The notes beneath the pieces are model-generated. The model was not told the origin of the DNA and searched no databases. It saw only the letters and a program-made list of their open reading frames with translations. A program made the position numbers and the translations under genes. A stretch of 64,000 nucleotides of DNA from an uncultured cyanobacterium (GTDB lineage Bacteria; Cyanobacteriota; Cyanobacteriia; PCC-9006; JAAUQQ01), in NCBI GenBank assembly GCA_963718615.1, contig OY970368.1:3552001-3616000 (forward strand). Reading direction: 5' to 3'. This document shows positions 14,598 through 43,892 of the stretch, piece after piece; within the stretch, counting starts at the first letter, position 1; every line of letters begins with the position of its first letter.

Positions 14598-14621
14598 CGG
14601 GATCTCGGCGTTATCTCGGCC

Positions 14622-15230: not shown

Positions 15231-15290
15231 TAAAAACTGGCTAAAAACTGGCTAAAAACTGACTGGTTCAAAACCAACTGGTTCAAAACC
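15231..15290. repeat. Intergenic short tandem repeats: TAAAAACTGGC x~3 and ACTGGTTCAAAACC x2
   Basis: Read directly in the divergent intergenic region. Confidence 0.85.
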
Positions 15291-15314
15291 GACTGCAAGA
15301 CAAGCCCCCTATGT

Positions 15315-23117: not shown

Positions 23118-23933
23118 CTAGAGGCCAGGGATCCGGCACAACAGATCGCGACTCACTAACCTCTCAAACTGGGCACGCATGGCTTTGGCTGAGAGGGTAT
23201 CTGAGAGTAAAACCCCTGCTTCAATATTGCGCTGATGGGCCGCCTCGGTGAAGTTGGCAGAAGTGACAAATAGCTTTTCATCATCCACCACGACGCACTT
23301 GGCATGGAGGCAGGCGCGAGGCCCAATCGCCGTTGAAAGCGACTGGGGGTCGTAGAACACCTCCGGTAGGCGATCGCCGGGCCAAATCTCATTGCGGAAG
23401 CTTTCAGAAAATTTGCGCAGCAATGCCGCATCTGAGGTTTTGCGATCGCCATAGGGCCGCTTGATGTTCATAAAAATCCGAACCTTCAGCTCAGGAATGG
23501 TCACCATACGCTCAGCTAGGGGCTGGAATAGCGCTTTGGCTTTCTTGCCTGTGTCCAGGGCGTAGCTAGAAATTAAGACGCTCTTTTGGGCGCTGTGGAA
23601 TAGCTCCTGCACCACGACTCGCGTGTCGCGGCTTTCAGTTCCGAGGACTTCTTCGCCGGTCCAGACGAGGTCGATTCCGTTGCGTTGTTCCTGGGCTTGC
23701 TTTCGCGCTTGGGCCAGCAGATTGAGCAGGTAGGCCAGATGCACAGCTTTCATGCCGTCGCCGCTGAGCTGGTTTAGCTCGGTGGCGATCGCCGTCATGA
23801 GCGAGGTGGGCACCACATTGGTCAAGCTGCTGGGTTGGCAGGGGAGCGGGATACGCCCCTGGGCGATCGCATCTGCCAGGCCTTCCAAACCAGGCCGACT
23901 TAATTGGTGAAAGGCCGAAGTCGTCTTCACCAT
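23118..23933 (-). CDS. drmC: DISARM phospholipase D-family nuclease DrmC
   Basis: LVWTG, single HKD motif HAKCVVVDD, TSANFT..A..RNIEAG; last gene after the DUF1998 gene. Confidence 0.9.
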   Translation of the reverse strand: MVKTTSAFHQLSRPGLEGLADAIAQGRIPLPCQPSSLTNVVPTSLMTAIATELNQLSGDGMKAVHLAYLLNLLAQARKQAQEQRNGIDLVWTGEEVLGTESRDTRVVVQELFHSAQKSVLISSYALDTGKKAKALFQPLAERMVTIPELKVRIFMNIKRPYGDRKTSDAALLRKFSESFRNEIWPGDRLPEVFYDPQSLSTAIGPRACLHAKCVVVDDEKLFVTSANFTEAAHQRNIEAGVLLSDTLSAKAMRAQFERLVSRDLLCRIPGL

Positions 23934-23936
23934 GGC

Positions 23937-28800: not shown

Positions 28801-29359
28801 GAATCCCTTCGGTGGCGGGCAGGTCCAGTTGAGTGATGCCAGGGATGGGGTCGTTGCCGAGCAGGCTGATTTGCTCAGGGTCGTCGCTGGCTTGGGAAAG
28901 GGAGATGCAGAGGGCAGATTGGCGGGGGGTGCGTTGCCAGGGGCGGCTGGTGCTGGCTTGGAGGCGGGTTTCGGCTTCGCTCTCAGCTTCGGGTAAGGGG
29001 TGGTAGTCACCCCAGGCGCAGTCCACGTCAATTTCCGTTGTCTCGGCGCTGATGAGGAAGCTGAGGCCAAAGGAGGAGGGGAAGATGCCTTTGCGGGCGG
29101 AGGCGGCTTCGGGCTTTTCGTCGTCGTCGCCGCTGGTTGTTTTTTCAACCTGAGAGTCGAAGCTGTCGTCGCTGTCGGGGTCGGAGCGGTCCTGGAGTTT
29201 GGCTTCGTAGGGGACAAGGAAGCCGGACAGGTACCACTTGGAGGGGGCCTGGGGGATAATTTCATCGGCATGGGCGCTGTCGGGCTCAGGACCGATGAGG
29301 TCGAGCTTGAGGGCATTGATGAGAGATGACCGCACTTCTGCGGAGGTTTCTAGCGCCAT
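25820..29359 (-). CDS. drmA: DISARM SF2 helicase DrmA
   Basis: WRPFQ, FPTGGGKTEAY, YTLRLLT, IQDELH, ATNMISVGLD, YIQATSRVGR. Confidence 0.93.
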   Translation of the reverse strand: MALETSAEVRSSLINALKLDLIGPEPDSAHADEIIPQAPSKWYLSGFLVPYEAKLQDRSDPDSDDSFDSQVEKTTSGDDDEKPEAASARKGIFPSSFGLSFLISAETTEIDVDCAWGDYHPLPEAESEAETRLQASTSRPWQRTPRQSALCISLSQASDDPEQISLLGNDPIPGITQLDLPATEGIRKTIPVPGSNGLELSLSIRPINNGCGLPSGTRSVSLFLVNKRAPAALSAERDCAYIFQVQLTASSKLPFVPRPDLRTQALDDEDGRIADLQYRHDVEYAVGHNVSATAIVSATAPGEADQPQCYQASTNWMPQADVEKVLHNEEIPKVDLRIEALGDAVDADAIRGMVGGIVTAYSTWITQQQANAPTSPQQRAEVSKDLLEKAAHVNQRIEAGLKALDKPDVLEAFQIANRAVARSMRQRATHDRDDLLPENARTPIWRPFQIAFLLMNIVSIDDPENQDRETVELIFFPTGGGKTEAYLGLAAFTLVLRRLRNPGLESAGLSVLMRYTLRLLTLDQLGRAATLICALELERQQNVEKLGPWPFEIGLWVGQAATANRMGSKKDKDRTSARARTIAYQNETTPDCPIPLENCPWCGTQFGAKSFQLLPTTDQPKDLRITCLNKKKRPDGKPVCVFRRDQSLPIVTVDEPIYRRLPCFLIATVDKFANLPWIGETAGLFGKVKRYDQDGFYGAAQPNQGGALTKPLLPPDLIIQDELHLISGPLGTMVGLYETAIDALSTYQTADGQTIRPKIVASTATVRRATSQIRALFGRDTVEVFPPPGPDRRDSFFAKTVPVTEKHGRSYLGVAAQGRSLKVVLLRTYLAMLGASKKAWEEAGGRRNKDNPADPYMTLMGYFNSLRELGGSRRIVEDEVQSRLETYGDRHRQDEDLGLFLSRKINEPLELTSRVNTTKVAEAKSRLEATFHHPEDFKKAVDVVLATNMISVGLDITRLGLMVVLGQPKTASEYIQATSRVGRDDERPGLVITLLNIHRPRDRSHYERFQAWHNTFYRAVEATSVTPFSPRALDRGLPGVVVALARLGHDKLTQPLGAGAILAHRTELDFVVEALSKRAEMHDKNFDADQAEALRLKVQGIVRDLLDSWDSVAKEQEGDLQYQREVGKAPPLLFTPLDPDRPKVGPAKKFKAQRSLRDVEPTVHLWLHDPNGNEMELKS

Positions 29360-29454
29360 GGGTGCTAAATCAGACCAGTAAATCTATCTAAAGCATAGCG
29401 GTAGAGAAAGCGATCGGTCAGGATGGTTTTGCCCCTTTTGACTTTCATGAGCGG

Positions 29455-29532
29455 TTAGGCGACGGCGTAGCCGGTGTGGGGCCGAACGTGGGGGGGATGG
29501 AAGGCGAGGACGATGTGGTCTTTGGCTGCCAT
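29455..29532 (-). pseudogene. xisH/xisI deletion scar (25-codon fusion)
   Basis: Translates MAAKD-HIVLAFHPPHVRPHTGYAVA*. MAAKD resembles an XisH N-terminus and the rest resembles the conserved XisI C-terminus (IVLAFHPP..R..TGYAVA). Confidence 0.7.
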
Positions 29533-29548
29533 GACTCGATTTTAGGGG

Positions 29549-30925
29549 CTAATCCAGCAGGTCGAGTTGTTCGATGGCGGGGGGGATGAGGTTGAGCTGT
29601 TTGCTGGGCTTGGGGCTGGTGTTTTTGCTGGGTTTGGCTTTGGCGGGGGGTTTGGCTTTGGCTTTGGCTTTGCCGGTTTTCTTTTTGCCGTGGAGGCCGC
29701 CGCGTATTTCTGCTTCGTAGCGGGTTTGGTTGAGGTCGAGGAGGCGGGCGAGGATTTCGTCGTGGATGGCTTCGGGCCAGCGGTAGCGCCAGGGGAGTTT
29801 TTTGCGTTTTTTGAGGCTGGCTTGGATTTGGTTGTCGAAGGCGGCGGCTTGGGCGGGGTCGGCCCAGTGGAGGTCGCCGGATGCGATGCGGTCTTGGAGG
29901 TTGGGGGGGAGGTTGTCGGTTTCGATGTCGAGGTAGTCGAGGGCGAAGCCGCAGGGGATGTGGCCTTGGTCGTCGGTTTCAAGATGTTCGGTCCAGCCGT
30001 AGGCGGTGAGGACGGCTTGGTCCATTTGGCTGTGGAGGTCGCGGAGGTGGTGGATTTCGGGGTCGGTTTCTTGGGGGTCGTGGAAGCGGTTGTAGGTGTC
30101 GGTGAGACCCTGGTTGTTGCGGATCATGAGGGCGGCGCGGTAGTCGTAGTAGGCTTTGCCGATGGTTTCGAGGGTGGGGTCGGTTTCCCAGTTTTCGGGG
30201 AAGGGGAAGGTTTCGAAGCAGTCGGAGGGGGTGTAGCGGAGTCGATCTTCCAGGGATGAGCCGAAGAAGCGTGTCCAGATTTCGTGGGGTCGGGATTGGA
30301 GGGCGCAGAAGGCTGAATAGGTGGAAATTGCAATTACGATAAGCTGCTCAGAATAGACCGTTCCTGCTGACAGAAATGTGAATGATCCATGTTGACCGAC
30401 ACGAGCAACTACTAATACCCGATCGCAAGTTGCGATCGCTCTAAACAAAGCAGGCGTGGTCTCCCCAAATTGCCACCAATAACGTGCTCGAATTTCCCGA
30501 TTTTGCTTGAGTCTTGCGGGCTTAATCTTCTCCTCAACGATCGCCATCAACTCCGGCCATTCCCGCGCTTCCTCCTCGCTCATCTCCCCAAAATTAATCA
30601 CATAGCGATGATGCTCATGGGTCGGGCTACTGTTGACTTCAGAGCCACCAATATAGGGGAAAATGCGTTCCTGATTCTTGGGATTCTCGGCAATCAATCG
30701 CTGCATTTCGGCCAGGGATGTTGCCTCAGGGGCCGTATCATCAAACGTAAATCCCATGCCTAAAACATAGCTGCCGACAAAACTCTTTTCCGCATTGGCC
30801 AGCAGCACTTTCGGGTTTTCGTGACCGCCCTTGGGAAACAGAAATGCCGTGATTTTTTCGACGGGTTTGCCGTCTAGGAGAATGGGAATAGAGGGTGGCA
30901 GTGCAAAGGAGAGGTTGCTTGACAT
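29549..30925 (-). CDS. Stand-alone DrmMI C-terminal half / MmeI-like target-recognition subunit, allele B
   Basis: ILLDGKPVEKITAFLF, GMGFTFDD, PYIGG.EVN, RYVINF, WW.F, LQSRPHE.W, LRYTPSDCFETFPFP, GLTDTYNRFHDP. Confidence 0.85.
   Translation of the reverse strand: MSSNLSFALPPSIPILLDGKPVEKITAFLFPKGGHENPKVLLANAEKSFVGSYVLGMGFTFDDTAPEATSLAEMQRLIAENPKNQERIFPYIGGSEVNSSPTHEHHRYVINFGEMSEEEAREWPELMAIVEEKIKPARLKQNREIRARYWWQFGETTPALFRAIATCDRVLVVARVGQHGSFTFLSAGTVYSEQLIVIAISTYSAFCALQSRPHEIWTRFFGSSLEDRLRYTPSDCFETFPFPENWETDPTLETIGKAYYDYRAALMIRNNQGLTDTYNRFHDPQETDPEIHHLRDLHSQMDQAVLTAYGWTEHLETDDQGHIPCGFALDYLDIETDNLPPNLQDRIASGDLHWADPAQAAAFDNQIQASLKKRKKLPWRYRWPEAIHDEILARLLDLNQTRYEAEIRGGLHGKKKTGKAKAKAKPPAKAKPSKNTSPKPSKQLNLIPPAIEQLDLLD
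29720..30319. repeat. Direct repeat T, copy 1 (TRD constant region), partner 35024-35623
   Basis: 600 bp, offset 5304, about ten mismatches by eye. Gap-free similarity continues with variable patches to ~30876/36180. Confidence 0.95.
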
Positions 30926-30932
30926 AAAACTT

Positions 30933-31319
30933 CTATGGATAAGTGAGTAAGTTTAGATTGTCGATAAAGCGAAAATCCCGTTGATTTTTACTCAACAGTG
31001 CCATCTGAGCCTCCATAGCAGTCGCCGCAATCAGGGCATCTGGGATAAGTAACCCATGACTCAAAACATAGCGCTGAAGCAATTCCTGAGCACGAGCACT
31101 GATGGGCTCCGTCAGGTGGATCACCTGAAACCGCTCAACAAACCGTTCCAACTCCCTGAGCTCAGCCTTGTTTCGGCAACCCACCATCAGCTCCATCACA
31201 GTAATGACCGACACAGCCAAAGTCGAGACTTCACTCTCCTGCATCACCCGTTGCTTAGCGGTATTGTCATCATTAGAAATATCAATCAAGATATCGGTAT
31301 CCACGAGCGTTTGGATCAT
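30933..31319 (-). CDS. vapC: PIN-domain VapC toxin (cassette B)
   Basis: LVDTDILID, SVIT.MEL..G, IPDALIAATA, N.RDF. Confidence 0.9.
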   Translation of the reverse strand: MIQTLVDTDILIDISNDDNTAKQRVMQESEVSTLAVSVITVMELMVGCRNKAELRELERFVERFQVIHLTEPISARAQELLQRYVLSHGLLIPDALIAATAMEAQMALLSKNQRDFRFIDNLNLLTYP

Positions 31320-31323
31320 GTCA

Positions 31324-31809
31324 TTACCGCCACTGCTGTTCTCTTAACTGCCTAACCCAAGCTGTACTATCCTCTAGCTCTGGGCGATCTTTCCACATTC
31401 CCACAAACGCCAATCCCTCTAGATCTAAAGGCCGAGATTGCTGGTTCAATCTCTGACTCAAAGCATCATCTTCGTCAGCATCTTCACTGGACTCATCATC
31501 ATGATGCCAAGCAATCACTGAATCAATCTCCGTTTTGTGGGATCGATAATAGGCTTGCACCGCAAACAGATCAAACGGAGTTAACCCTGGAAAATTTTCA
31601 AGCAATTCGTCCTCATCCATACCTTGCTGAACCAAAGAAACCAACGTCCAAACCGCAACTCGCGTATTGCGCAAACAAGCATATCCGCCCGCCACACCCG
31701 GCGTTTTGCGAATCATATGATTGATAATGACCTCTTGAAATAAAGCATAGTCATCCTGGGGCAAAGCAACCACCGCATCGACCAAAGACTCCACCAGTTT
31801 CGGATTCAT
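31324..31809 (-). CDS. DUF433 protein fused to a DUF2281-like antitoxin tail (cassette B)
   Basis: KTPGVAGGYACLRNTRVAVW (DUF433); tail FVGMWKDRPELEDSTAWVRQLRE; ATGA overlap with the upstream MTase fragment. Confidence 0.8.
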   Translation of the reverse strand: MNPKLVESLVDAVVALPQDDYALFQEVIINHMIRKTPGVAGGYACLRNTRVAVWTLVSLVQQGMDEDELLENFPGLTPFDLFAVQAYYRSHKTEIDSVIAWHHDDESSEDADEDDALSQRLNQQSRPLDLEGLAFVGMWKDRPELEDSTAWVRQLREQQWR

Positions 31810-32621
31810 CGCCGTTTCCCTCCCGAAGTTCCTTGCTTAAAAATATGCACCACACTCACCACCACCGCCGCCAAACCGGGCCATTTATAGCGCCGCGTCG
31901 CATTGTAGATCGTCCCCCCATTTTGGCAGACAAACCGTAACCCCGTGCTGCGCGTGTCTCCCTGGGCGATCGTATTCGTGGCAATCAACCCATAGGCTCC
32001 GCCTACCCGAATAATCTCAAAGGCCCGCCGAAAGAAATAAGCCACCAAATCCGCATTGCCATGGGACTCTGGATAGCCTTCCTTCAAATAGTCCAAATAG
32101 CCTTCCGCGTTGCCATTGATGGTTGTGTTCTTTCCTGCAAACGGCGGATTCCCCACGATCGCATCAAACCCGCCATTCTCCCGAGCAAACACCTCCGGAA
32201 ACTCCACCTCCCAACTAAACGGAACCACCGGCTTCTCCCGCTCCCGCAACTGCCCCGCGATCGCCACCATCCGCTCCGGCTGCGATCGCACCACCTGGCT
32301 ATACTCCGACACCAACAATTCCCGATCCTTCTTACTCTTGCCAAAACCATCGAAGGTTGCCGCGATCGCCACATCCCCCTGCATCCGCACCTGCAACAAC
32401 TTCGCTTCCGCATCCTGCCACTGCCGATACTTCAAATCCGCATCCCCATCCGACAACGTATCCCCCGACTGAATCTTCGACCTCAACACCGTCGCCGCCA
32501 AAATCTGCTCCTGCCCATACTTCATCAACGGCAAATCCTGAATCGGGTCCCGCCCAAAAGCCACAATCTTCTTCCGCGTCAGCCCCACCAACAAATCCAC
32601 ACACTTAAATGCATGGTCCAT
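31806..32621 (-). pseudogene. 5'-truncated duplicate of the drmMI catalytic 3' end (271 aa, intact frame)
   Basis: Near-identical to the last ~265 aa of 37034-39823. Has GNPPF but lacks the SAM-binding motif; GDSL is changed to VDLL. Confidence 0.8.
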
Positions 32622-32634
32622 AAATGTAAATGGC
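31845..32634. repeat. Direct repeat M, copy 1 (MTase 3' region), partner 37055-37844
   Basis: ~790 bp, offset 5210. Near-identical core, more divergent edges. Confidence 0.95.
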
Positions 32635-32698
32635 GGTAGTCCTCTGGCGGTAAGGACTGCACCGCTTCGACAAGGGATTCTACGACTTTGGTGTTCAT
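32579..32698 (-). pseudogene. Truncated third DUF433-antitoxin 5' stub fused out of frame to the MTase fragment
   Basis: MNTKVVESLVEAVQSLPPEDY aligns with MNPKLVESLVDAVVALPQDDY and MSTKFAESLAEAVVALPKEDY, then runs into repeat M and stops after 39 aa. Confidence 0.8.
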
Positions 32699-32756
32699 GG
32701 GCTTTAAGTTGAGAACAAAGGAGGCGATCGCTATCTGCTTCAGAGAAGTTAAGCGG

Positions 32757-33608
32757 CTAATTTCCTCCGTTTAGCTGCCTGAGATAATTGATAAAAGCAA
32801 TCTTTTCTTCATCAGTCATCTCCCGACGACTATTCTTCTGATAGGTTTGCTGAATATGCTGTTGTGCCTGTGGAATATCCCAGCCTGCAAGCTTCATTTC
32901 AATCCGAATTTGCGCATTAAGTGACAACTCAATCACACCAGCAATGAGTTTCCAGCAGGGTTTAGGAGGGCCAGTCCAGTCATCAAATTCATGTGGCAGG
33001 CTCAGGCTCAGGGTAATTAGGCAGGGGCCTTCTGGAACAGAACCCTGATCCAACTGATGCAACAAGATAGTATCAGTGAGGGTGAGTTTATTAAAAGACA
33101 AGCCATTTCTCATAGAAAAAGATCCTTTCCATTGCGTCCCACCATTGCGTCTTCGGGAAGAAATAATTTCGAGTTTATCCGTATATACAAGTTCTAAAGT
33201 CTTACGGTCAGGAAATGATAAGGCTTGCAGATCAGCAATCGGAACATATTTATAGGAGTTGTGGAGAATTGGTGAGCCGAAGTTTATAAATTCGACAACA
33301 TCGTCAACACTTGCTTTTCGCACGAATGTCCAATCACCAGTCAGAATTGAGCGATTTTCACATTCAAAGTCAAAGTCTGGCCCTGTTGTATCTAATGGGA
33401 TTTCCAACACATCCAGTAATTCAACTTCAACAAGCGTGAGCATATTGCCATCATCAATTACGGGCGTCGCACTAGGGACTCTACCGTCTTCAGGATGTTC
33501 ATCAGAAACAGGTCGAATCCATTGCCCTGATGCAGGTTCAATGCCAGCAACGCATCGTTCGCTGTACTTGGCGGAATTGGCCAAGCAAATAATTTGAGTA
33601 AGGCCCAT
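32757..33608 (-). CDS. Dual OB-fold-like protein with short C-terminal helical domain
   Basis: IICLANS.K...RCVAGI...GQWIRPVS, EN......W, C.KLIAGVI, as recalled for DUF488-associated dual-OB proteins; AT-rich. Confidence 0.65.
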   Translation of the reverse strand: MGLTQIICLANSAKYSERCVAGIEPASGQWIRPVSDEHPEDGRVPSATPVIDDGNMLTLVEVELLDVLEIPLDTTGPDFDFECENRSILTGDWTFVRKASVDDVVEFINFGSPILHNSYKYVPIADLQALSFPDRKTLELVYTDKLEIISSRRRNGGTQWKGSFSMRNGLSFNKLTLTDTILLHQLDQGSVPEGPCLITLSLSLPHEFDDWTGPPKPCWKLIAGVIELSLNAQIRIEMKLAGWDIPQAQQHIQQTYQKNSRREMTDEEKIAFINYLRQLNGGN

Positions 33609-33623
33609 GATTTAATACCAAAC

Positions 33624-34091
33624 TTAGAGATGATGAATATCGATGCATCCCCATTTCTCATTCAAATACTCGGCAACCAGGCGTCTGTGGCAGTGATGCG
33701 GCTTGGCCTCGCTACAAAGTAAGCAGCTACTATCCACTAAATCGGGTGACAAAACTTTTTCAATTTCACGTTTGTTCATCAGATCAATGAATTGGCTCTC
33801 ATATATTTGCCATTCACCTTTCTGCTTCTTAAAGGTGTCAAGGATATCTTTAGTAGGGGCTAACTCGGGAATATGGACATACTCAATATTCCCAATTTCT
33901 TTTAGAAAATAAGCGAGGTCGTCGCGCTTAGAGAAACCTGCGAGCTGGGAAACGTTATTCAAGCGCGTATCAATTACGCGACGAACCCCAGACTTGAGTA
34001 GCAGCTCAAAAAACTGTTGGGCTGTTTTTTGGGTAAAGCCAATCGTGAATAGGTCAATGGGTTGAGTCATGGTTGCGTTCAACGTAGGCAA
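33624..34091 (-). CDS. DUF488 family protein
   Basis: FTIGFTQK.A..FF, IDTRLNN.SQLAGF.K, CLLCSE...HHCHRRLVAEYL. Confidence 0.88.
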   Translation of the reverse strand: MPTLNATMTQPIDLFTIGFTQKTAQQFFELLLKSGVRRVIDTRLNNVSQLAGFSKRDDLAYFLKEIGNIEYVHIPELAPTKDILDTFKKQKGEWQIYESQFIDLMNKREIEKVLSPDLVDSSCLLCSEAKPHHCHRRLVAEYLNEKWGCIDIHHL

Positions 34092-34746
34092 TACGATCGC
34101 CCTGACGGGTGTAAGCCTCTTGGATGGCCTCTGCTAGAGAGAGCGGTTTGAGGACAGCGACAGAATGATCGGATATCGAATTGCTGGTAGAGCTATGAAA
34201 CAAACTCAGTTGGGCTGGTTCTGGTGCTTCAATAGGTTGACCGAGGGCATCTGCCAACCCATTTGCTCGGAGCAGACGTTCTTCTAAATGCTGATGTGTC
34301 TCTAGCTCGCCATTGTGCCAGATATGGTTGATGTCTAGGGAGAAGGGCTTTAGATGTTGGCAAACTAAAACAGCGCGATGGCAAGTAAGCGGATCTTTTT
34401 CCGCACACATGAGCGCTACATCGAACTTTTGGCTACCACTGATGACACGATCAATACCTTGAGCAAAGGCACCAGTAGCGGCGATGCGCTCATATAACGC
34501 TTTCCCATCTACATAGCAGCTTTCATCATCAGGACGGGCTCCCAGCTCGCGCCCAAGAAACACGTAACGAATGCCAGCTTTTTGGAGAGCATCTTTCAAA
34601 GGCTTTTGGCAGAAGTGAGGCATGTAGCGGCTATAGGGGGTAGACCGAACATCCGCTAGAGCGGTTACCTCATGCTGCTTGAGCAGGGCAATGAAAGTGT
34701 CAATATCATGATTGGAATGACCAATCGTGTACAACTTGTTTGACAT
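34054..34746 (-). CDS. DUF488 family protein
   Basis: YTIGHSNH, DVRS.PYSR, LG.ELG.R, LMCAEKDPL.CHR. Confidence 0.9.
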   Translation of the reverse strand: MSNKLYTIGHSNHDIDTFIALLKQHEVTALADVRSTPYSRYMPHFCQKPLKDALQKAGIRYVFLGRELGARPDDESCYVDGKALYERIAATGAFAQGIDRVISGSQKFDVALMCAEKDPLTCHRAVLVCQHLKPFSLDINHIWHNGELETHQHLEERLLRANGLADALGQPIEAPEPAQLSLFHSSTSNSISDHSVAVLKPLSLAEAIQEAYTRQGDRIAYVERNHDSTH

Positions 34747-34779
34747 GCTACGGGTTGGGAGGGACTGCCTATGGCCTCA

Positions 34780-34785
34780 ATTATA
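34780..34785 (-). promoter_or_regulatory. Candidate -10 box (TATAAT) for the DUF488 cassette
   Basis: Perfect TATAAT ~35 bp upstream of the ATG at 34746; no clear -35. Confidence 0.35.
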
Positions 34786-34882
34786 GGGAAGTTGCATAGC
34801 AGAAAAGATTTAGCTAGAGTTAAGATCTGAGCTGCTGATGAATCTACGGAGGCGGGTTTGGAGGGGGATCGTTGGACGTATT

Positions 34883-36214
34883 CTAGTCATGGTCAAGTAA
34901 TCCTGGAATAGTCGGAAAGTCAGGGTCGGGGGCTGATTTAGTCCGCTTAGTTTTGCTCTTGGTGGATGTTCCTTTTTGAGAAACCTTCTTCGCCGCCTTG
35001 TGCCCGAGCACCTCTTCCTCGTGGCGGGTTTGGTTGAGGTCGAGGAGGCGGGCGAGGATTTCGTCGTGGATGGCTTCGGGCCAGCGGTAGCGCCAGGGGA
35101 GTTTTTTGCGTTTTTTGAGGCTGGCTTGAATCTGGTTGTCGAAGGTGGCGGCTTCGGCGGGGTCGGCCCAGTGGAGATCGCCGGATGCGATGCGGTCTTG
35201 GAGGTTGGGGGGGAGGTTGTCGGTTTCGATGTCGAGGTAATCGAGGGCGAAGCCGCAGGGGATGTGGCCTTGGTCGTCGGTTTCGAGATGTTCGGTCCAG
35301 CCGTAGGCGGTGAGGACGGCTTGGTCCATTTGGCTGTGGAGGTCGCGGAGGTGGTGGATTTCGGGGTCGGTTTCTTGGGGGTCGTGGAAGCGGTTGTAGG
35401 TGTCGGTGAGACCCTGGTTGTTGCGGATCATGAGGGCGGCGCGGTAGTCGTAGTAGGCTTTGCCGATGGTTTCGAGGGTGGGGTCGGTTTCCCAGTTTTC
35501 GGGGAAGGGGAAGGTTTCGAAGCAGTCGGAGGGGGTGTAGCGGAGTCGATCTTCCAGGGATGAGCCAAAGAAGCGTGTCCAGATTTCGTGGGGGCGGGAT
35601 TGTAGGGCGCAGAAGGCTGAATATGTGTCGAGAGCGCAAACGATCAGAGCTTCAGAAAAAACCATATTTGGGAGCACAAAGGTCAGTCCCCAATTTGGCT
35701 GATGGCGAGAGATGACTAATACCCGATCGCAAGTTGCGATCGCTCTATACAAAGCAATTCGTTTCTCGCAAAAATGCCACCAAAGACGACGATATATTTC
35801 TCGTTTATCTAGTAATCTTTGAGGCTTAACTTTCGCTTCTACGATCGCCATCAACTCCGGCCATCCCCGCGCCTCCTCCTCACTCATCTCGCCAAAGTTA
35901 ATTACATAGCGTCGATGCTCGTGGGTTGGACTACCATTTACCTCAGAACCACCAATGTAAGGGAAAATGCGTTCCTGATTCTTAGGATTTTCCGCAATCA
36001 ATCGCTCCATTTCGGCGAGGCTTGTCGCTTCCGGATTCGTATCATCAAACGTAAATCCCATGCCTAAGACAATGCTGTCTTGAAAACTCTTTTCCGCATT
36101 GGCCAGCAGCACTTTCGGGTTTTCGTGACCGCCCTTGGGAAACAGAAACGCGGTGATTTTTTCGACGGGTTGGCCGTCGAGAATAATTTCGGGTTGATAT
36201 GGCATTGAAATCAT
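34883..36214 (-). CDS. Stand-alone DrmMI C-terminal half / MmeI-like target-recognition subunit, allele A
   Basis: Paralog of 29549-30925; ATGA overlap with the upstream PIN stop. Confidence 0.85.
   Translation of the reverse strand: MISMPYQPEIILDGQPVEKITAFLFPKGGHENPKVLLANAEKSFQDSIVLGMGFTFDDTNPEATSLAEMERLIAENPKNQERIFPYIGGSEVNGSPTHEHRRYVINFGEMSEEEARGWPELMAIVEAKVKPQRLLDKREIYRRLWWHFCEKRIALYRAIATCDRVLVISRHQPNWGLTFVLPNMVFSEALIVCALDTYSAFCALQSRPHEIWTRFFGSSLEDRLRYTPSDCFETFPFPENWETDPTLETIGKAYYDYRAALMIRNNQGLTDTYNRFHDPQETDPEIHHLRDLHSQMDQAVLTAYGWTEHLETDDQGHIPCGFALDYLDIETDNLPPNLQDRIASGDLHWADPAEAATFDNQIQASLKKRKKLPWRYRWPEAIHDEILARLLDLNQTRHEEEVLGHKAAKKVSQKGTSTKSKTKRTKSAPDPDFPTIPGLLDHD
35024..35623. repeat. 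Direct repeat T, copy 2
   Basis: Matches 29720-30319. Confidence 0.95.
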
Positions 36215-36597
36215 CTAATTAGCTTTACGTCATACTGATCGAAGACCTTATCCACACTCACAAGTCCGATATCTTCAACCATCGCCTGAGCAATGATCAA
36301 GCGGTCAAATGGATCGCGATGATGGAAAGGTAACGCTGATACTGTCTTTAGATGCTTTATTTCAATGGGTAATAGAGTGATTTTGTTTATCCTAATTTGC
36401 TCGTTCAAAAACGGTTGAAACTCTTCTTCTAAAGATAACTTTCCAACGCTCACCTTAATTGCAATTTCCCATATACTCGCAATGCTTAGCAAAATATCAA
36501 CCTCAGATTCCAATAGCCTTCTGGTGGTAGAGTCTAGCTGCGGGCTGCGGGCAATAAACCATAGGAAAATATGAGTGTCTATTAATACGCTCATCAC
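36211..36597 (-). CDS. vapC: PIN-domain VapC toxin (cassette A)
   Basis: LIDTHIFLW, SIASIWEIAIK...GKL, HHRDPFDRLIIAQA. Confidence 0.92.
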   Translation of the reverse strand: MMSVLIDTHIFLWFIARSPQLDSTTRRLLESEVDILLSIASIWEIAIKVSVGKLSLEEEFQPFLNEQIRINKITLLPIEIKHLKTVSALPFHHRDPFDRLIIAQAMVEDIGLVSVDKVFDQYDVKLIR

Positions 36598-37028
36598 ATG
36601 TAGTCCTTAAAATCCTCTAGAGGCTCATCAAAATCGGGAGACATCCAGATTTTTCCAGCAGCACTTCCGGCCTGCCGATACGATTGATTAGGCTGATCCA
36701 GTTCATCCCAGTCGTCATTGTGCTGACTGACAATCTCTGCATCAATTTCAGCTTTATTCGCCTGATAGTAAGCTCGCATGGCTAAAAGATCGAAGCGAGT
36801 TAAGTCGGGATAATTTTGCAGTAGCTCTGCATCGTCCATCCCCTGATTTATAAAAGAAATCAGCAACCATACCGCAATTCGCGTATTCCGAATGCAGGCA
36901 ACACCGCCGACAACACCCGGCGTTTTACGAATCAATTTATTGGTAAGTGTCTCTTGGAATAAGTCATAGTCTTCTTTGGGCAAAGCCACTACAGCCTCAG
37001 CTAGCGATTCCGCAAATTTCGTACTCAT
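36594..37028 (-). CDS. DUF433 protein fused to a VapB/DUF2281-like antitoxin tail (cassette A)
   Basis: ATG 37028 follows an AAGGAGG RBS inside the MTase end. KTPGVVGGVACIRNTRIAVW; tail RQAGSAAGKIWMSPDFDEPLEDFKDYM overlaps the PIN start. Confidence 0.82.
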   Translation of the reverse strand: MSTKFAESLAEAVVALPKEDYDLFQETLTNKLIRKTPGVVGGVACIRNTRIAVWLLISFINQGMDDAELLQNYPDLTRFDLLAMRAYYQANKAEIDAEIVSQHNDDWDELDQPNQSYRQAGSAAGKIWMSPDFDEPLEDFKDYM

Positions 37029-37033
37029 ACGCG

Positions 37034-39823
37034 CTAATTTCCCTCCTTGAACACATGCACCACACTCACCACCACCGCTGCTAACCCCGGCCACTTGTAG
37101 CGCCGGGTCGCATTGTAAATTATCCCCCCATTTTGGCAGACAAACCGTAACCCCGTGCTGCGCGTGTCGCCCTGGGCGATCGTATTCGTCGCAATCAATC
37201 CATAGGCTCCACCCACCCGAATAATCTCAAAGGCCCGCCGAAAGAAATAAGCCACCAAATCCGCATTGCCATGGGACTCTGGATAGCCTTCCTTCAAATA
37301 GTCCAAATAGCCTTCCGCGTTGCCATTGATGGTTGTGTTCTTTCCTGCAAACGGCGGATTCCCCACGATCGCATCAAACCCGCCATTCTCCCGAGCAAAC
37401 ACCTCCGGAAACTCCACCTCCCAACTAAACGGAACCACCGGCTTCTCCCGCTCCCGCAACTGCCCCGCGATCGCCACCATCCGCTCCGGCTGCGATCGCA
37501 CCACCTGGCTATACTCCGCCACCAACAATTCCCGATCCTTCTTACTCTTGCCAAAACCATCAAACGTTGCCGCGATCGCCACATCCCCCTGCATCCGCAC
37601 CTGCAACAACTTCGCCTCCGCATCCTGCCACTGCCGATACTTCAAATCCGCATCCCCATCCGACAACGTATCCCCCGACTGAATCTGCGACCTCAACACC
37701 GTCGCCGCCAAAATCTGCTCCTGCCCATACTTCATCAACGGCAAATCCTGAACCGGATCGCGCCCAAAGGCCACAATCTCCTTCCGCGTCAACCCCACCA
37801 ACGAATCGCCACACTTTAGCGAGTGATCCACAAACGTAAACGGCAAATCCCGCGCCAACGTCACCAACCACAGTGACAACTTCGCCAAATTCACCGCAAA
37901 GGGATTCTTATCCACCCCATACAAACAACGCTGCGCCACCAACCGCCGCGCATACAACAACGGTTCCACCGCATCCGGCACATCCCCCGGCATCCCGTGA
38001 TAATCCCAAGCCGCCACCAACCGCTCCGCCAACTGCCGACAAACCTCCACCAAAAAGGCAGCCGACCCCATCGCCAAATCACAAACCTTCAGCTCCAAAA
38101 TCTGCTCCGCCGTCGGCTGCGCCCCCAACCGCTCAAAAATAGGCCGCAACGTCGTCTCCACAATCGGCTGCGTCAACTTACGCGGCGTATAATGCGACCC
38201 CGTCCGCCGCCGCTCCTCCCCCGGCTGCAAATACAACGCCCCCGGCATCAACACCTGCAATGTCCGCTCCGACACCCGCCGCTCCAGCGCCGCCAGAATA
38301 TCCGCAACAGTCTCCGCCTCCTTCAACGCCGTCGCCCCCTTCCCCGACAGCGTCAGCTCCCCCGCCTCCTTCAACCACTTCGCCCGGTCCTTCGGCTTCT
38401 GGGCCAGCAAATCCTCCAGATTAATCACCACATCCTTCGGCTTCACCGCAATGGACTGCGCCTTAGCAATCTCCACCTCATAACCCATAATCGCCTCATA
38501 CACCGAGCCGATCTGCTCCACATCCAACGCCCGATAACTCAGCCGCTCCCCATTCAAAATCAGCAGCTTCTGGAGCATCCGGTAGATGACGCCGTCAGCA
38601 ATGCGAGGAATCTCTCCATTCCCCTCCAAAAACGCATACTCCGCCGGATCAAACAATTGCCCATGCCGCGCAGGCAAATAAGCCTCATAGCTCCCACCCC
38701 CGTCATACACCAGCCGAAACAAACTCAACAGCCAAGCCCAAGCCCCATAGCGATCTTCCATCGTGTCGTGGAAAGCACCATCGTCATCGCGCAGTTTTTC
38801 ATACAACCCCGAAACCGAATAATTCCCCTGATACACCGCATCATCCGGCATCAGCCCCTGGTCCTCCGCATACAGCAAAAACACCAGCCGCATCAGCGTC
38901 GTCAACAGCCCGCCATAGACATGCTGCGGATTGGCCTCGGCTAAAGCCTTCAGTTCACTGACCTGAGCCTCACCCTGCCGATCATCCCGCTTGGCATCCG
39001 CCGCCTGAAAGCCCCGCAACAACTCCCACAGCGCATCCAACACCTGCTCCGCCAACTGCGTCGAAACATTCGCCTGGTAAGCCCGACTCGCCTCTAGCAA
39101 CTTCGGCAACGTCCGCTCCCTCGGCGCATTCCACAGCCGATCCGCCCCCAGCAACATCTCCAGCGCCCCCAAAATCAGCCGCCCCGGCACCTCCGTCATC
39201 GCCTCAATCGGGAACGTAATATGCCCGCTCGACTCCCCACTGGGCGCATAAACCAACCGCAAAGCAACCCCATTCCACAAGATCCCAATGGGAACATTCA
39301 CCCCCTTCAACAGCCGCTCAAACTTCTGCTGCGGACTCGCCTTCCAGCCGCCTGATCCACCCTGGCTCCCCGCATTCGGATCTTCCCCATCCAAATCCCG
39401 CCCCAGGGGCACCACCTTCACCAGCAGCAAATAGCCCTCACTATCCAGGTCCACCACCCCATACTGGGGCCGCAGCACCTCGCCATAATCCGACAGATTC
39501 ACCTCCAGCGAGGCAGGCAAATCCGCCTCCGCCACCACATCTGCCGCCTCCCACTCCAGCACCTGCTCCGCAAAGGGCAGAAACTCCGGCACGTACGTTA
39601 TGGGGCTCTGCTCCTTGCCATCTCGCTGAACCTCTGCCGCCTGAAGCCCAGGCAACAGCTCCTGCTGCACCAACCCCTGCAACACCGGCTGCAACCGCAA
39701 CGCACTGCTCTTATCCACAAAGGCCTGCTTATCCGCCAACGCCGGAGGCGACACCACAAGACCCTCCGGCTGCAACAGCCCCAGCCATTCGCGATGTAGA
39801 TATTGCTCGTTGTCGTAGGCCAT
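37034..39823 (-). CDS. drmMI: DISARM adenine methyltransferase DrmMI, N-terminal/catalytic part lacking the TRD
   Basis: RLVFLLYAED, LDVEQIGSVYE, RRRTGSHYTP, DLAMGSAAF (SAM motif), LYGVDKN, GNPPF (motif IV); ends at VVHVFKEGN*. Confidence 0.88.
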   Translation of the reverse strand: MAYDNEQYLHREWLGLLQPEGLVVSPPALADKQAFVDKSSALRLQPVLQGLVQQELLPGLQAAEVQRDGKEQSPITYVPEFLPFAEQVLEWEAADVVAEADLPASLEVNLSDYGEVLRPQYGVVDLDSEGYLLLVKVVPLGRDLDGEDPNAGSQGGSGGWKASPQQKFERLLKGVNVPIGILWNGVALRLVYAPSGESSGHITFPIEAMTEVPGRLILGALEMLLGADRLWNAPRERTLPKLLEASRAYQANVSTQLAEQVLDALWELLRGFQAADAKRDDRQGEAQVSELKALAEANPQHVYGGLLTTLMRLVFLLYAEDQGLMPDDAVYQGNYSVSGLYEKLRDDDGAFHDTMEDRYGAWAWLLSLFRLVYDGGGSYEAYLPARHGQLFDPAEYAFLEGNGEIPRIADGVIYRMLQKLLILNGERLSYRALDVEQIGSVYEAIMGYEVEIAKAQSIAVKPKDVVINLEDLLAQKPKDRAKWLKEAGELTLSGKGATALKEAETVADILAALERRVSERTLQVLMPGALYLQPGEERRRTGSHYTPRKLTQPIVETTLRPIFERLGAQPTAEQILELKVCDLAMGSAAFLVEVCRQLAERLVAAWDYHGMPGDVPDAVEPLLYARRLVAQRCLYGVDKNPFAVNLAKLSLWLVTLARDLPFTFVDHSLKCGDSLVGLTRKEIVAFGRDPVQDLPLMKYGQEQILAATVLRSQIQSGDTLSDGDADLKYRQWQDAEAKLLQVRMQGDVAIAATFDGFGKSKKDRELLVAEYSQVVRSQPERMVAIAGQLREREKPVVPFSWEVEFPEVFARENGGFDAIVGNPPFAGKNTTINGNAEGYLDYLKEGYPESHGNADLVAYFFRRAFEIIRVGGAYGLIATNTIAQGDTRSTGLRFVCQNGGIIYNATRRYKWPGLAAVVVSVVHVFKEGN
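37055..37844. repeat. Direct repeat M, copy 2
   Basis: Matches 31845-32634. Confidence 0.95.
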
Positions 39824-39879
39824 GGTGATGATTCGGGGAACTTGTCAGGGAAACTCGGTCAGCATTCAGCAGAATTCGC

Positions 39880-40470
39880 TCAGCTCGGTTCGTTTGAGGC
39901 TGAGTCAAACACAATGTCTTCGTAAATGGCTTCGATGGGAAACGTTAAATCAACCGACTGAAGCTCAACCGAATCACCAGCTTGATAGTTGAGAATTTGC
40001 CAAGCATCCTGAGCCGTTCTGCGAAAGATTTCGATTGAGATCGCTTCTGAATTCACCAAAACGTACTCTTGCAGATTCGGATTTTGTCGATACATTCTGA
40101 ACTTATCGCCTCGGTCATAGGCCTCCGTCGAAGGCGAGAGCACTTCAATCACTAGGCAGGGATAGGTAATGAACTGCTTCGTTGTTTTATCACGCGGATC
40201 ACAGGTGACGCTGAGGTCAGGGTAAACATAGTCAGTTGAATTCAAAATGCTGACCCTAGCATCGGAATTGAGAACCTTGCAGCCGCTGCCTCGCATGTGG
40301 GCTTTTAGCACAGCGCCGAAGTTGATCGAGATTTCACTGTGATTAATCGTTCCGCCGCTCATGGCATAGACTTCACCGTTGAGATATTCATGGCGATGGA
40401 GCTGCTGTTCCTCCCAAGCGAAATATTCCTCGGGCGTTAATTTGGGAAACTTTTCTTTTGCGACAACCAT
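39880..40470 (-). CDS. Uma2 family (DUF820) putative endonuclease
   Basis: T.EEY..WE...RHEY.NG.VYAMSGGT..H, YPD..VTCD, IEVLSPSTEAYDRG.KF..YR. ATG 40470 is preferred over the ORF-track start. Confidence 0.92.
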   Translation of the reverse strand: MVVAKEKFPKLTPEEYFAWEEQQLHRHEYLNGEVYAMSGGTINHSEISINFGAVLKAHMRGSGCKVLNSDARVSILNSTDYVYPDLSVTCDPRDKTTKQFITYPCLVIEVLSPSTEAYDRGDKFRMYRQNPNLQEYVLVNSEAISIEIFRRTAQDAWQILNYQAGDSVELQSVDLTFPIEAIYEDIVFDSASNEPS

Positions 40471-40570
40471 GATTAATCCCCTGTTCGTTGAATCAACTCG
40501 TTGAAACTCAACTGACACCTCAAAATTCTATCGGTGTAGCTCCTGAATCGGTTTGGCACTGATTCAGCTC

Positions 40571-43500
40571 CTAACTCGTCACCGGCCAGAGATAGACCAG
40601 TCCCACCGGCTCCACCCGCGTTGCTTTGACCTGGTAAGCCTTGCGAATCCGCTCCGGCTCCGTCTCAATTTCTTGCGCCAACATTTCCAAGCGCTTCTCC
40701 CAGTGCCGTCGGTCCGAGGCGAGCTGACGCTTCTCCGATTCCGCAAAGGCCAAAGTCATCTGTTGAGAATCCTGGTCCGTCTTCTGCTGCTGGCGACGAA
40801 TGCGATCGCGCTGCTCCTCCAGCAACTGCTTCATCTCCTTGGCTTCGCGATCGCCCCGCTCCGCCAGCTTCTTCTCGGCCTCCGCCGTCAGCGTCTTAAC
40901 CATGTCATCCAGATGAGAGGCCAAATCCTTCACATCCTGGGGGGCCGACTGTTGCAGCCGCTGCCGAACAGTCTCCGGCACATCCCGCAAACGAGGATTG
41001 GCTAAGGACTCTTCCAGGATTTGAAGGACTTCTCGCGTGGTGCGATCGCCCAAGACCTGCAAGCCCTCCCGCGCCTCCGGCGACCTCCACCGCGCCACCA
41101 CCGACACCACCTCATCATGGAGCCGCGCTGCCCCATCGCCATAGAGCGACAGCCGCCCCAGCATAATCACCCGAGGAATCGCCGTATCGGTCAAGCAAAC
41201 ACAGGCCCGCGTCAAATCATCATGGACAAAGCCCTGGGACAGGAAGCGCCCCAGCAGCCGCTGCACCAGCCGCTGCTCCAGATGCAAATGCACCGCCTCC
41301 CCATCCAGCGTGCCGGAATCGCGAAAAATCACCGGACGAATGGAAGCTTCTTTACGCCATTCCCACAGCTTCTGCCCCCGCTGACGCGGAGCCCGCAGCG
41401 TATCCAGGGTCGCCGCCCAGGTGGGGTCATTGCCCAGGCGCTCATCCAAGGCCGGAATCTCCCAACGAGCCAGGTCTGGATTGTCCAATGCCTCCTGGCT
41501 CGACATCGGTGCCAATGGTTGAGCACCTAGCACTTCCAGCGAGGCTGAGAGGGCATCGCGAAAAAAGCTGTCCTTGAACCCCAGCCATTTGTGGGAGCTG
41601 TCGAGGATGTTTTGCAGTTGCTTCTCTTGCTCTAGAAGGGCCTGGTGGCGATCGCGCATGACATCCAGTTCTTCACTGATCACCTGTCCCTTATCCAGCG
41701 AATCCCCATCCGCCTGATCCGCCTGGCGCAGCGCATCTGACAGCCTCGCCTCATCCTCCGCCCGAATGCCGTTTTTCAACAGCTTCGAAACAGTCTTCTC
41801 CACCACAGGCGACAGACTGCCTAGCTCCTCATGGATGGTCTTGGTTTTCTCCACCAGCACATCCAGCACCCGGTCCTCCGCCCGCTGGGGATAGACAAAA
41901 TAATGGCAGTGAACCACCTTGGCCTTCTGCAACTTCCGGTCAATGCGGCCATTGCGCTGCTCCATCCGGCTGGGGTTCCAGGGCACATCGAAGTGGAACA
42001 ACTCCGAGCAATAGTTCTGAAGGTTCACCCCCTCCCGCGCCGCATCCGTGGCAATCAAAATCCGCAGGGGATGCTTGGCCGGGTCCGCATTAAAGGCCGC
42101 TTTGATCTGCTCCCGCCGTTCATCCCCCATACCGCCATGGAAGGTGCCAATGCGATTATCCGCATCATCGGAGCCTTGGATTAACGCCTCCAGTTGCTGC
42201 TGCAAATAGCGCTTGCTGTCGGTGTACTCCGTGAAAAATAAGACCCGCTGGTGATTCCACTGGGCTCCCGTCTCACCCAGGTTAGGGCAAAGATTCGCCT
42301 TCAACCAAGCCTTGAGATAGGCAATGCGGCCATCGGCTTGGTGTCGTGCTGCGATCGCAATCTGGGTCATCTCCTCCAGCAGTTCCAGCTCTCGTTCGGT
42401 CACACCGCCGCCGCTAAACTGAGTCGCCGCTGACATCTGGGCATCTTCTTCCTGTTCGATATCGGCTTCATCGAGATCCGCGCGATCGTCATCGTTCCCC
42501 GCCGCCTCCGCCAATAGCGAGAGCCTTCCCTGGACCAACCCAGGAGCGGCCATGGCCTGAGCCGGTCGCTCTACCGCCTGGCGCTTCATTGCCTGGCGAT
42601 GTACCCGCAGCGTCCGCGAAAACGCTTCAATCGACGACAGCAGTCGTTTCTGCAACGACAACATCACTAGCATCGCCGCTGCCCGAGAAGACGTTGTGGC
42701 ATCCTTGAGCCTGGCTTCTCGACAATTGCGATACTCCTGCAACAGCCGCGATAACACTAGCTCCGGCGCATCCTCAGGCAGGTTATCAATCCGCACCGCA
42801 ATCACCTCCCGCTTCGGGAAGTCCGCATTCTTAATTTCCCGCAAATCCTGCTTCAGCCGCCGCACCATCACCCCATCCAGCAGCGCCTTACTGCGCACCG
42901 GCACCCCTCGACAAAACCGCTGGGGGTCCAAAATCTCCAGCAGCGCTGCAAAGCTATTGGAATGGCCATTGTGGGGCGTCGCCGATAGAAACAGCCGATG
43001 CTCAAACATCGGAGCCAGCTCCCGCACCGTCCGCGTTAGCTGGGAATCCACCGCATATTTAGAACTGCTGGCCGGAGCCGCATTGTGGGCCTCATCCAAA
43101 ATCAGCATCGACCCCGCCGAAAGCTGCTGCCCCCCCTCGGTCAGCCAATCCCGCAGGGGTGCCGCATAGCTCTCATTGCGCAGCAGCGCATGGGAAATGA
43201 TGAAACGGTTATGGGTCTTCCAGGGATTGATACCATAGCCCCGCTCCCGCCGCCGCGCCGCCACAAAGGCCCGGTCATAAATCGTGAACGTCAAGCCAAA
43301 GCGGCTCTCCATTTCATCCTTCCACTGCTGCACCACAGACGGCGGACAGAAAATCACCACCCGCTTAATCTTTTGCCGCAGCAGCATCTCCCGCAGAATC
43401 AACCCCGCCTCAATCGTCTTGCCCAGGCCCACATCATCGGCAATGAACAGATTCACCCTGGGCATCCGCAGCGCCTTGCGCAGGGGCTCCAACTGGTAAG

Positions 43501-43888: not shown

Positions 43889-43892
43889 AGTC

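Follow-up and report, generated by a model that had tools for sequence, protein, structure and literature searches.

How many self-marks can a single DISARM methyltransferase write? The question is raised by a locus of an uncultured cyanobacterium contained in the window, by which we mean the whole stretch of 64,000 nucleotides analysed (positions 3,552,001 to 3,616,000 of contig OY970368.1), part of a single closed 6,095,823-bp contig that constitutes the whole genome assembly. The locus carries a complete class 1 DISARM defence system in which the N6-adenine methyltransferase (MTase) DrmMI is encoded by two separate open reading frames (ORFs), one for a catalytic M subunit and one for a target-recognition domain (TRD) subunit, with the two genes of a toxin-antitoxin (TA) pair between them. 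The unit formed by the 3' end of the M gene, the TA pair and the TRD gene is present twice, in direct orientation, between drmD and drmA. We lean, with modest confidence, towards the reading that DrmMI is made as two proteins, that one M subunit serves two TRD subunits and so writes two self-marks, and that the TA pairs stabilise the array.

DrmMI encoded as two proteins

Domains were called with Pfam and defence genes with PADLOC models. Both identified DrmD, DrmMI, DrmA, DrmB and DrmC, all on the minus strand and in the canonical order of class 1 DISARM, a system reportedly described by Ofir and colleagues in 2018; drmA, drmB and drmC are contiguous (23118-29359), and PADLOC places the SNF2-type DrmD and the N6-adenine MTase DrmMI in one cluster. 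The order of transcription is: UvrD/NERD-like helicase, DrmD, Uma2, M, antitoxin A, PIN_A, TRD_A, DUF488, DUF488, DuOB, M', antitoxin B, PIN_B, TRD_B, DrmA, DrmB, DrmC, and all the window features given below are on the minus strand. The locus differs from class 1 DISARM in three respects: DrmMI is not a single chain, M and TRD being separate ORFs with two TA genes between; a second TA-TRD cassette is present together with a relic of M (M'); and Uma2 and PDC-M45 genes are nested in it.

The M subunit (37034-39823, 929 aa) is a gamma-class N6-adenine MTase of the MmeI-like kind (type IIL/IIG-like), with the Pfam domains MmeI_N, N6_Mtase, Eco57I and MmeI_Mtase; its translation shows the S-adenosylmethionine-binding motif I region DLAMGSAAF and then the catalytic GNPPFAGK. 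Two stand-alone TRD subunits accompany it, TRD_A (34883-36214, 443 aa) and TRD_B (29549-30925, 458 aa, adjoining drmA), both matching Pfam MmeI_TRD (E = 1.6e-14 for TRD_B). The PADLOC DrmMI matches have E = 1e-300 for M and E = 1e-155 to 1e-158 for the TRD proteins; M covers positions 6-934 of the 935-position model PDLC02638, and TRD_A positions 605-1013 of the 1015 of model PDLC02640. It may be added that PDLC02638 has only 935 positions and is spanned end to end by M; split M subunits were therefore already, unremarked, in the data behind PADLOC.

The cut falls in a linker. All six fused homologues examined have the M tail (...VxHVFKG) 2-8 residues (29 in the locus L054) before the TRD head (...LDGxxVxxISAFLF), while the window M terminates at VFKEGN and TRD_A begins just ahead of LDG. 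M stops and TRD_A starts within this linker, and therefore nothing is missing from the split DrmMI. The place is occupied by antitoxin A (36594-37028; Pfam DUF433, with a C-terminal tail like DUF2281) and PIN toxin A (36211-36597, 128 aa; Pfam PIN E = 3.5e-16), and the genes are tightly packed: five nucleotides separate the M stop from the likely antitoxin A ATG at 37028 (M23 of the ORF, chosen by alignment with antitoxin B; an upstream GTG at 37094 is the alternative ORF start), and there are 4-nt overlaps between antitoxin A and PIN_A and between PIN_A and TRD_A. In the second unit, antitoxin B (31324-31809, 161 aa; Pfam DUF433 E = 3.1e-18), the start of which overlaps the stop codon of M', is followed by PIN toxin B (30933-31319, 128 aa; Pfam PIN E = 2.2e-16). 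Both pairs have a VapBC-like layout, with a small DUF433 antitoxin gene directly upstream of the PIN gene and, at pair A, overlapping it. PIN-COG2442 pairs are presented as VapBC-family TA loci in cyanobacteria in passages of PMC3834315.

Structure prediction supports binding between the two halves. The complex was modelled for TRD_A only, from M residues 501-929 and TRD_A, each entered as a 42-row alignment; the ipSAE was 0.85, against 0.00 for the best of three controls, with runs sharing at least 75% of contacts and a partner pLDDT of at least 79. The mark used is reached by 58 of 80 solved complexes and by 2 of 110 mismatched pairs. The modelled interface joins M residues 871-928 to TRD residues 5-32, both largely conserved between the cassettes.

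The second unit opens with the M' relic (31806-32756), an open frame of 316 codons homologous to M residues 655-928 (95% identity) with partial Pfam matches to Eco57I and MmeI_Mtase; the gene call for the fragment within this frame is 31806-32621, with a predicted product of 271 aa. It retains NPPF (GNPPFAGK) but has neither DLAMGSAAF, the motif I region, nor any of the 654 N-terminal residues, and the locus thus encodes a single complete catalytic MTase. An earlier reading of the letters and ORF translations of this DNA (hereafter the original prediction) had called the locus a class I DISARM system in which the only full MTase is accompanied by two TRD genes, both intact; the five genes found by PADLOC and the lack of motif I in M' bear this out.

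Divergence and specificity of the two cassettes

A repeat search found direct repeats at an offset of 5210 (31826-32125 / 37036-37335) and of 5304 (29700-29999 / 35004-35303 and 30492-30791 / 35796-36095), and BLASTN aligned 31493-32634 with 36712-37844 (86.6% over 1142 bp) and 29700-30883 with 35004-36187 (88.6% over 1189 bp). The two direct units between drmD and drmA that the original prediction had placed at these offsets were recovered almost to the base. It had also described two near-identical anchors, one in M (about 790 bp) and one in the TRD gene (T, 600 bp). The T anchor stood as described, copies A (35024-35623) and B (29720-30319) differing by 10 mismatches in 600 bp (98.3%, ungapped). 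The M anchor was shorter than proposed: the M-side block 31850-32640 has 44 mismatches in 791 positions (94.4%, ungapped) and is clean only over 630 bp (copy A 37123-37752, copy B 31913-32542; 10 mismatches, 98.4%), with a core (32005-32542) of 5 mismatches in 538.

Outside the anchors the units are far from identical. Past the M anchor the sliding identity drops to about 70% in the M 3' end and DUF433 domain and to about 40% in the antitoxin C-terminal tail and the PIN gene; it is 80-97% over the 5' part of the TRD gene and about 60-65% over its central stretch, and the final ~140 nt of the TRD_A and TRD_B genes are unrelated. Nei-Gojobori estimates of synonymous divergence (dS) between the units, and of the ratio of nonsynonymous to synonymous divergence (dN/dS), follow the same mosaic: dS is 0.73 at the 5' edge of the M fragment, 0.94 at the M 3' end, 1.46 in the DUF433 domain that forms the antitoxin N-terminus (dN/dS 0.17), 0.56 in the TRD 5' part (dN/dS 0.11) and 0.85 in the TRD variable part (dN/dS 0.49); inside the anchors it is 0.066 (T) and 0.05-0.07 (M). 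A simple recent tandem duplication is ruled out as the source of what the original prediction had called a tandem array, because dS outside the anchors reaches 0.56-1.46 and the toxins are unrelated. The pattern of divergence indicates that the two units are long-diverged, selectively maintained alleles standing side by side, in which two tracts have recently been homogenised.

The TA genes are the most dissimilar part. PIN_A and PIN_B are 23% identical (BLASTP E = 9.6), and the antitoxins share the DUF433 domain only, their C-terminal tails being unrelated in alignment; the non-identity of the TA genes, already noticed in the original prediction, is therefore real, and the two pairs are, to judge by these comparisons, apparently non-cross-reacting.

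The TRD proteins, on the other hand, are 81% identical, and both look intact: their family hidden Markov model (HMM) scores of 642.8 (TRD_A) and 660.2 (TRD_B) compare with a family median of 678 and a range of 526-723. Their differences gather in the first ~15 residues, in the tail and in a variable region of 74 residues, aa 127-200 (35615-35836 in TRD_A, 30311-30532 in TRD_B), which coincides with the peak of column entropy among 79 relatives (TRD_A aa 136-210). The TRD family profile matches MmeI (structure 5HR4) at E = 4.7e-9, and the single sequence at E = 2.3e-4. According to the parts of Morgan & Luyten 2009 (PMC2731914) drawn on here, MmeI E751 and N773 set motif position 3, A774 and R810 position 4, and E806 and R808 position 6. 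The E751 loop aligns to TRD_A 168-176, where only one of nine residues is shared between the cassettes (ISRHQPNWG in A, VARVGQHGS in B); N773/A774 align to E188/A189, with Q in TRD_B instead of A189; and the equivalents of E806, R808 and R810 are E221, R223 and R225, conserved within the shared T anchor. The TRD differences thus lie mainly in the 74 residues that are aligned with specificity-determining positions of MmeI, and the motifs of TRD_A and TRD_B would be related, differing at one or two positions.

A separate observation concerns the variable part of both TRD genes, where a 51-nt block (30402-30452 / 35706-35756) is 90% conserved and forms an island of identity in the most divergent TRD stretch; it holds two HIP1-type palindromes (GCGATCGC).

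Split loci, second cassettes and toxin-antitoxin pairs in relatives

Relatives of the locus were taken as the 80 best of 581 tblastn-confirmed loci in GTDB species representatives (labelled L with a number), and a class sample of 401 genomes (labelled G) was surveyed for DrmMI-type TRDs, counted at E = 1e-25 or better. At the DrmMI junction 64 of the 80 loci are fused, 13 split and 3 odd. The single-chain DrmMI taken as canonical in the original prediction is thus indeed the prevalent form, and the split at this junction is not exceptional. In the class sample 59 of the 401 genomes have a DrmMI-type TRD, about 11 of them as stand-alone frames of 398-461 aa. No relative was found in seven same-family genomes (62-93% complete).

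On a quick TRD tree (LG+G4, SH-aLRT only), 78 of the 81 rows were labelled, 62 as fused and 16 as split; the split rows include both window TRDs and both copies of L092, and the three odd rows were left unlabelled. The split state requires 6 changes, and starred branches make at least 4 of these unavoidable; one clade of 41 rows, mostly Nostocales, contains no split row, one of its members being odd (unlabelled) and all the others fused. This tree does not support one common origin of the split loci, although recombination among alleles could blur it.

TA-family genes are a regular feature of the split. With L048 left out of the census, 11 of the 13 split loci carry a TA-family gene between M and TRD, of varied type: DUF433+PIN, DUF2281+PIN, PIN alone, RHH+PIN with DUF433, UPF0175+DUF3368, MazF-like plus DUF2281+PIN, and DUF433 alone. 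One split locus (L059) has only unassignable small ORFs there, and an additional locus besides the 13 (L028) has DUF433+DUF5615. In the loci checked, the TRD gene begins directly at, or within, the end of the gene before it. A strict co-inheritance of TA and TRD was rejected, as sister TRDs have unlike TA types (L085 versus L088, L089 versus L109), which means fast TA turnover at the site; despite this turnover, PIN_A-type toxins recur, with orthologues 55-60% identical at the same position in three other loci (L031, L073 and L092). For PIN_B no homologue was found at E < 1e-5 in the 80 related loci.

Second cassettes also occur elsewhere. Two TRD copies in one locus were found in 3 of the 59 TRD-bearing genomes of the class sample (G000, G014, G331). 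Among the related loci, three carry a second cassette, intact in L092 and decayed in L052 and L037. L092 has two intact units of small ORF, PIN and TRD, the second between drmA and drmB, and its TRDs are near-identical outside the same central region that varies between the window TRDs. The second TRD of L052 (genome G014) is in three pieces and is 77% identical to the first in its 5' half and 95% in its 3' half. In L037 a fused DrmMI is followed by a 45-aa M relic, a PIN gene and a 100-aa TRD relic.

Two of these loci have peculiarities of their own. In L092 (4865-11221, a contig of a Pseudanabaenales metagenome-assembled genome) the drmA frame runs to 1480 aa, exceeding the usual length by ~300 aa, and drmB is fragmented, which may be biology or a mis-assembly. 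The whole DISARM locus of G014 (L025/L052) appears to be decaying: DrmD, DrmA and the second TRD are fragmented, and at 13035-15359 DrmMI carries a DUF559 (Vsr-like endonuclease) domain fused to its N-terminal part.

Explanations of the array and its surroundings

The reading with one M and two working TRDs can be laid out as a sequence of events. A constant M subunit, consisting of the N-terminal domain and the catalytic MTase, would pair with a separately encoded TRD as type I M pairs with S, the split lying in the linker of 2-8 residues and a VapBC-like DUF433-PIN pair filling the site. A segment carrying M, TA_A, TRD_A and PDC-M45 most likely recombined into a resident locus; in the process the resident M would have been cut back to the M' relic, while the resident TA_B-TRD_B remained complete. 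As the TRD is a free-standing gene, this left-over cassette would stay usable, and later gene conversion would have homogenised two tracts, at the 3' end of M and in the 3' half of the TRD. Both TRDs would be made and, by way of N-termini conserved between them, would bind the one M present, so that the genome would be methylated at two related, different motifs. Recombination between anchors could then delete one cassette: from the coordinates, a crossover in the M anchor would leave M-TA_B-TRD_B-drmA and one in the T anchor M-TA_A-TRD_A(tail B)-drmA, either deletion presumably yielding an intact single-cassette locus. Each would remove one TA pair, and the pairs would for this reason disfavour cassette loss; by analogy with TA genes in other arrays, they may penalise that loss and stabilise the array. 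TA pairs placed exactly at the split could also be regulators of TRD expression or abortive-infection back-ups.

The main rival to this reading is that the array is the scar of an allelic replacement, in which only one cassette works with M and the other is an undecayed leftover that adds no second motif. M' is truncated at its 5' end and lacks motif I, as expected of a displaced resident allele; the TA genes and the PDC-M45 cargo have a lower guanine-cytosine (GC) content (0.43-0.50) than the DISARM core genes (0.56-0.61), which fits a recent import; and the downstream copy is decayed in two of the three other loci with a second cassette (L052 and L037), so that second cassettes are often transient relics. 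Nevertheless the frames of TRD_B, antitoxin B and PIN_B are open over their full length and score normally for their families, a leftover cassette would need nothing else to work, the TRD being a separate subunit, the anchors are near-identical and the M' frame is still open, and both cassettes of L092 are likewise intact, again divergent in the centre and conserved on either side. We regard the scar as unlikely, while giving it more weight than the two explanations that follow. Programmed specificity switching (phase variation) between TRD_A and TRD_B, by anchor recombination at a useful frequency, would account for two near-identical anchors bracketing the variable parts, the low anchor dS shows that the copies recombine, either deletion would leave a single-cassette locus, and DrmMI and PglX are targets of programmed variation elsewhere, in the portions of PMC9881135 used here. 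The repeats are direct, however, with no inverted repeat in 26000-44000 by the repeat search, and the window has no match to the tyrosine or serine recombinase families PF00589 and PF00239 (the nearest PF00589 lies more than 140 kb away), in line with the original prediction, which saw no site-specific recombinase, so that the arrangement lacks the hallmarks of a shufflon or programmed inversion and programmed switching is unlikely. A crossover between direct repeats would delete DNA irreversibly, contrary to the switching suggested in the original prediction, and nothing points to a reversible or programmed process; each deletion would also remove a TA pair, a loss that should be costly, and two copies per locus are confined to the 3 of 59 TRD-bearing genomes given above. 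Together these points make switching very improbable.

It is barely credible that the array is an artefact of assembly or strain mixture, with the alleles of two cells concatenated by the assembler. The units have indeed diverged like alleles of different strains, and near-identical M and anchor pieces occur in contigs from other samples; yet the genome is one closed 6.1-Mb contig, the anchors are only 600-630 bp long with unique sequence on both sides, the 5' boundary of M' beside DuOB is a junction that alleles of one locus would not create, and two-cassette loci occur in independent assemblies (L052, a complete chromosome, L092 and L037). The contigs in question (four runs, likeness of at least 88) covered M, the anchors and the drmA end in short pieces and did not extend to the TA genes or the spacer; one contig joint skips 5334 (29957 to 35292, side 28), which equals the 5304 repeat offset plus a 30-bp variant also seen alone.

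Several points weigh against two working TRDs on one M as well. Besides the decayed copies in related loci, the low dN/dS between TRD_A and TRD_B could predate the joining of the units and is no proof of present-day selection on both. A consensus scan gave 6 promoter-like sites where 8.7 were expected from shuffled sequence, which is not above chance and is also compatible with the scar, and 15 terminator-like sites against 13.0 expected; among public sequencing runs no RNA run contained the stretch and no run held more than 0.17 of the sampled words. The pass of the complex model may reflect likeness to, or memory of, MmeI-like structures, because M and TRD are halves of one split gene with a solved relative, MmeI; the mapping on MmeI depends on remote similarity (E = 2e-4 for the sequence by itself, 4.7e-9 for the profile); and stabilisation by the TA pairs is argued by analogy. 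Two self-marks at once, the other option of the original prediction, nonetheless fits the TRD differences at MmeI specificity residues and the M-TRD model; co-expression of both TRDs and the two motifs themselves we infer. As an observation apart, each antitoxin start is preceded at ~80 nt by the same promoter-like site, CTGCCA-16-TACAAT (37139-37112 / 31929-31902, minus strand), and this duplicated site, a candidate TA/TRD promoter carried on the M fragment, is only a lead.

The reading with two TRDs can be set beside known systems. MmeI-type MTases (MmeI, BREX PglX, DISARM DrmMI) are treated as single chains, the specificity of which is changed by point mutation or recombinase shuffling. In type I restriction-modification (R-M) systems, one HsdM (with HsdR) can work with several HsdS specificity subunits. 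The window resembles these in that specificity resides on a separate subunit docking on a constant methylase and in that variable segments are flanked by conserved sequence; it differs in that HsdS has two TRDs, whereas the enzyme here is MmeI-like, a kind that is normally a single chain with one TRD for an asymmetric site. The window TRDs match MmeI_TRD and conserve the E221/R223/R225 set, with the A/B differences on the E751-loop and A774 equivalents, although DrmMI is distant from MmeI (E = 2e-4 to 5e-9) and has no demonstrated nuclease activity. PrrC is a known case of a gene embedded in a type I locus, EcoprrI. Exchange of TRDs by recombination at conserved flanks ('domain movement') is described for Helicobacter in passages of PMC3467074, and excerpts of PMC13108822 report that TA cassettes limit cassette loss in chromosomal integrons. 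As with integron TA cassettes and PrrC, toxin genes sit here inside an array or defence operon, where the toxin would be released if the neighbouring DNA were lost or the system inhibited; unlike integrons, the window has no integrase or attC, and its TA genes are packed between the halves of one enzyme.

The closest published parallels lie in class 1 DISARM DrmMI and BREX PglX, which vary, according to the sections of Milman et al. 2023 (PMC9881135) considered, by programmed, shufflon-like inversion driven by a recombinase; the same sections describe a naturally split PglX in Brevibacterium casei, cut where the variable region ends. As far as those sections describe them, these systems and the window share a constant MTase body with alternative specificity parts stored beside the gene, but the former have inverted repeats, an adjacent recombinase and reversibility, whereas the window has direct, complete and separately translatable TRD genes, each with a TA pair. 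The published inversion mechanism is inapplicable here, because neither recombinase nor inverted repeat is present. A DISARM system of Serratia appears in portions of a preprint (10.1101/2021.12.28.474362). In the literature searched, neither a split DrmMI accompanied by TA genes nor a DISARM locus with tandem TRD cassettes was found described, the supplementary locus tables of PMC9881135 being outside the search.

In roughly one sixth of the related cyanobacterial loci sampled, then, the enzyme is cut at the linker between MTase and TRD, which gives it the modular M + S logic of type I systems, and the single catalytic subunit of this genome has two diverged TRD subunits at its disposal. Should both be in use, a DISARM system can bear more than one self-mark and can gain a new specificity while still keeping its existing one, and the M/TRD pair would be a natural template for the engineering of programmable adenine methylases. 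The two-cassette arrangement is rare, and second cassettes elsewhere are often decaying, which limits the reach of this conclusion. A bolder proposal, which we offer tentatively and would not call likely, is that operons of antitoxin, PIN and TRD are self-stabilising, exchangeable specificity modules of DISARM, in which the cut at the linker makes the TRD a plug-in subunit that strains could take up from one another by recombination at the conserved M-3' and TRD-3' anchors and then stack, so that one M would write several self-marks and orthogonal TA pairs would kill the cells that lose a cassette. If true, this would be an additive route, free of recombinases, to new or multiple specificities in an MmeI-type enzyme, and one that avoids the risk of autoimmunity inherent in outright replacement of specificity.

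The remaining DISARM genes are as follows: DrmD, an SNF2 helicase of 1105 aa (40571-43888; Pfam SNF2-rel_dom and Helicase_C; PADLOC PDLC02621, 1131.3 bits); DrmA, a helicase of 1179 aa (25820-29359; Pfam Helicase_C; PADLOC PDLC02575, 1101.8 bits); DrmB, an MZB/DUF1998 protein of 628 aa (23937-25823; Pfam MZB; PADLOC E = 5.5e-81); and DrmC, a PLD nuclease-like protein of 271 aa (23118-23933; Pfam PLDc_2; PADLOC E = 7.6e-121). A UvrD/NERD-like helicase gene (43893-45989), the best PADLOC matches of which are 'NERD+UvrD' (C3a187) and GajB-like models, lies 4 nt upstream of drmD and is possibly a further defence gene associated with the locus; ORFs resembling UvrD also lie beside the related loci L032, L095 and L096. 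Between drmD and the M gene there is a gene for a putative endonuclease of the Uma2 family (39880-40518; Pfam Uma2 E = 2.3e-42).

The two units are separated by a candidate system, PDC-M45 (32757-34746; Pfam and PADLOC), with a GC content of 0.43-0.49 against 0.56-0.61 in its surroundings. It consists of DuOB (32757-33608; PADLOC PDC-M45A, E = 3.3e-21) adjoined by two DUF488 genes, the first of which (34054-34746) is PDC-M45B in PADLOC (E = 2.9e-75) while the second (33624-34091) is called by Pfam only; the DuOB gene (M45A) next to DUF488 (M45B/C) agrees with the layout of this putative defence system. No homologues of these window genes were found in the 80 related loci (phmmer, E < 1e-5). 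Other loci carry different cargo in the gap between drmMI and drmA (DUF3037+HipA_2, an AAA_21 ATPase, XisH/XisI/Uma2), and from these gene contents the gap appears to be a hot spot for cargo across many DISARM loci. In L089 a Uma2 gene lies with XisH/XisI between the TRD gene and drmA. A pair of DUF3037 and a HipA_2-like kinase, on the opposite strand, occupies the gap in L036 (11335-12974) and L073 (11235-12882), and ORFs similar in size to this pair are present in L083 (8279-9927).

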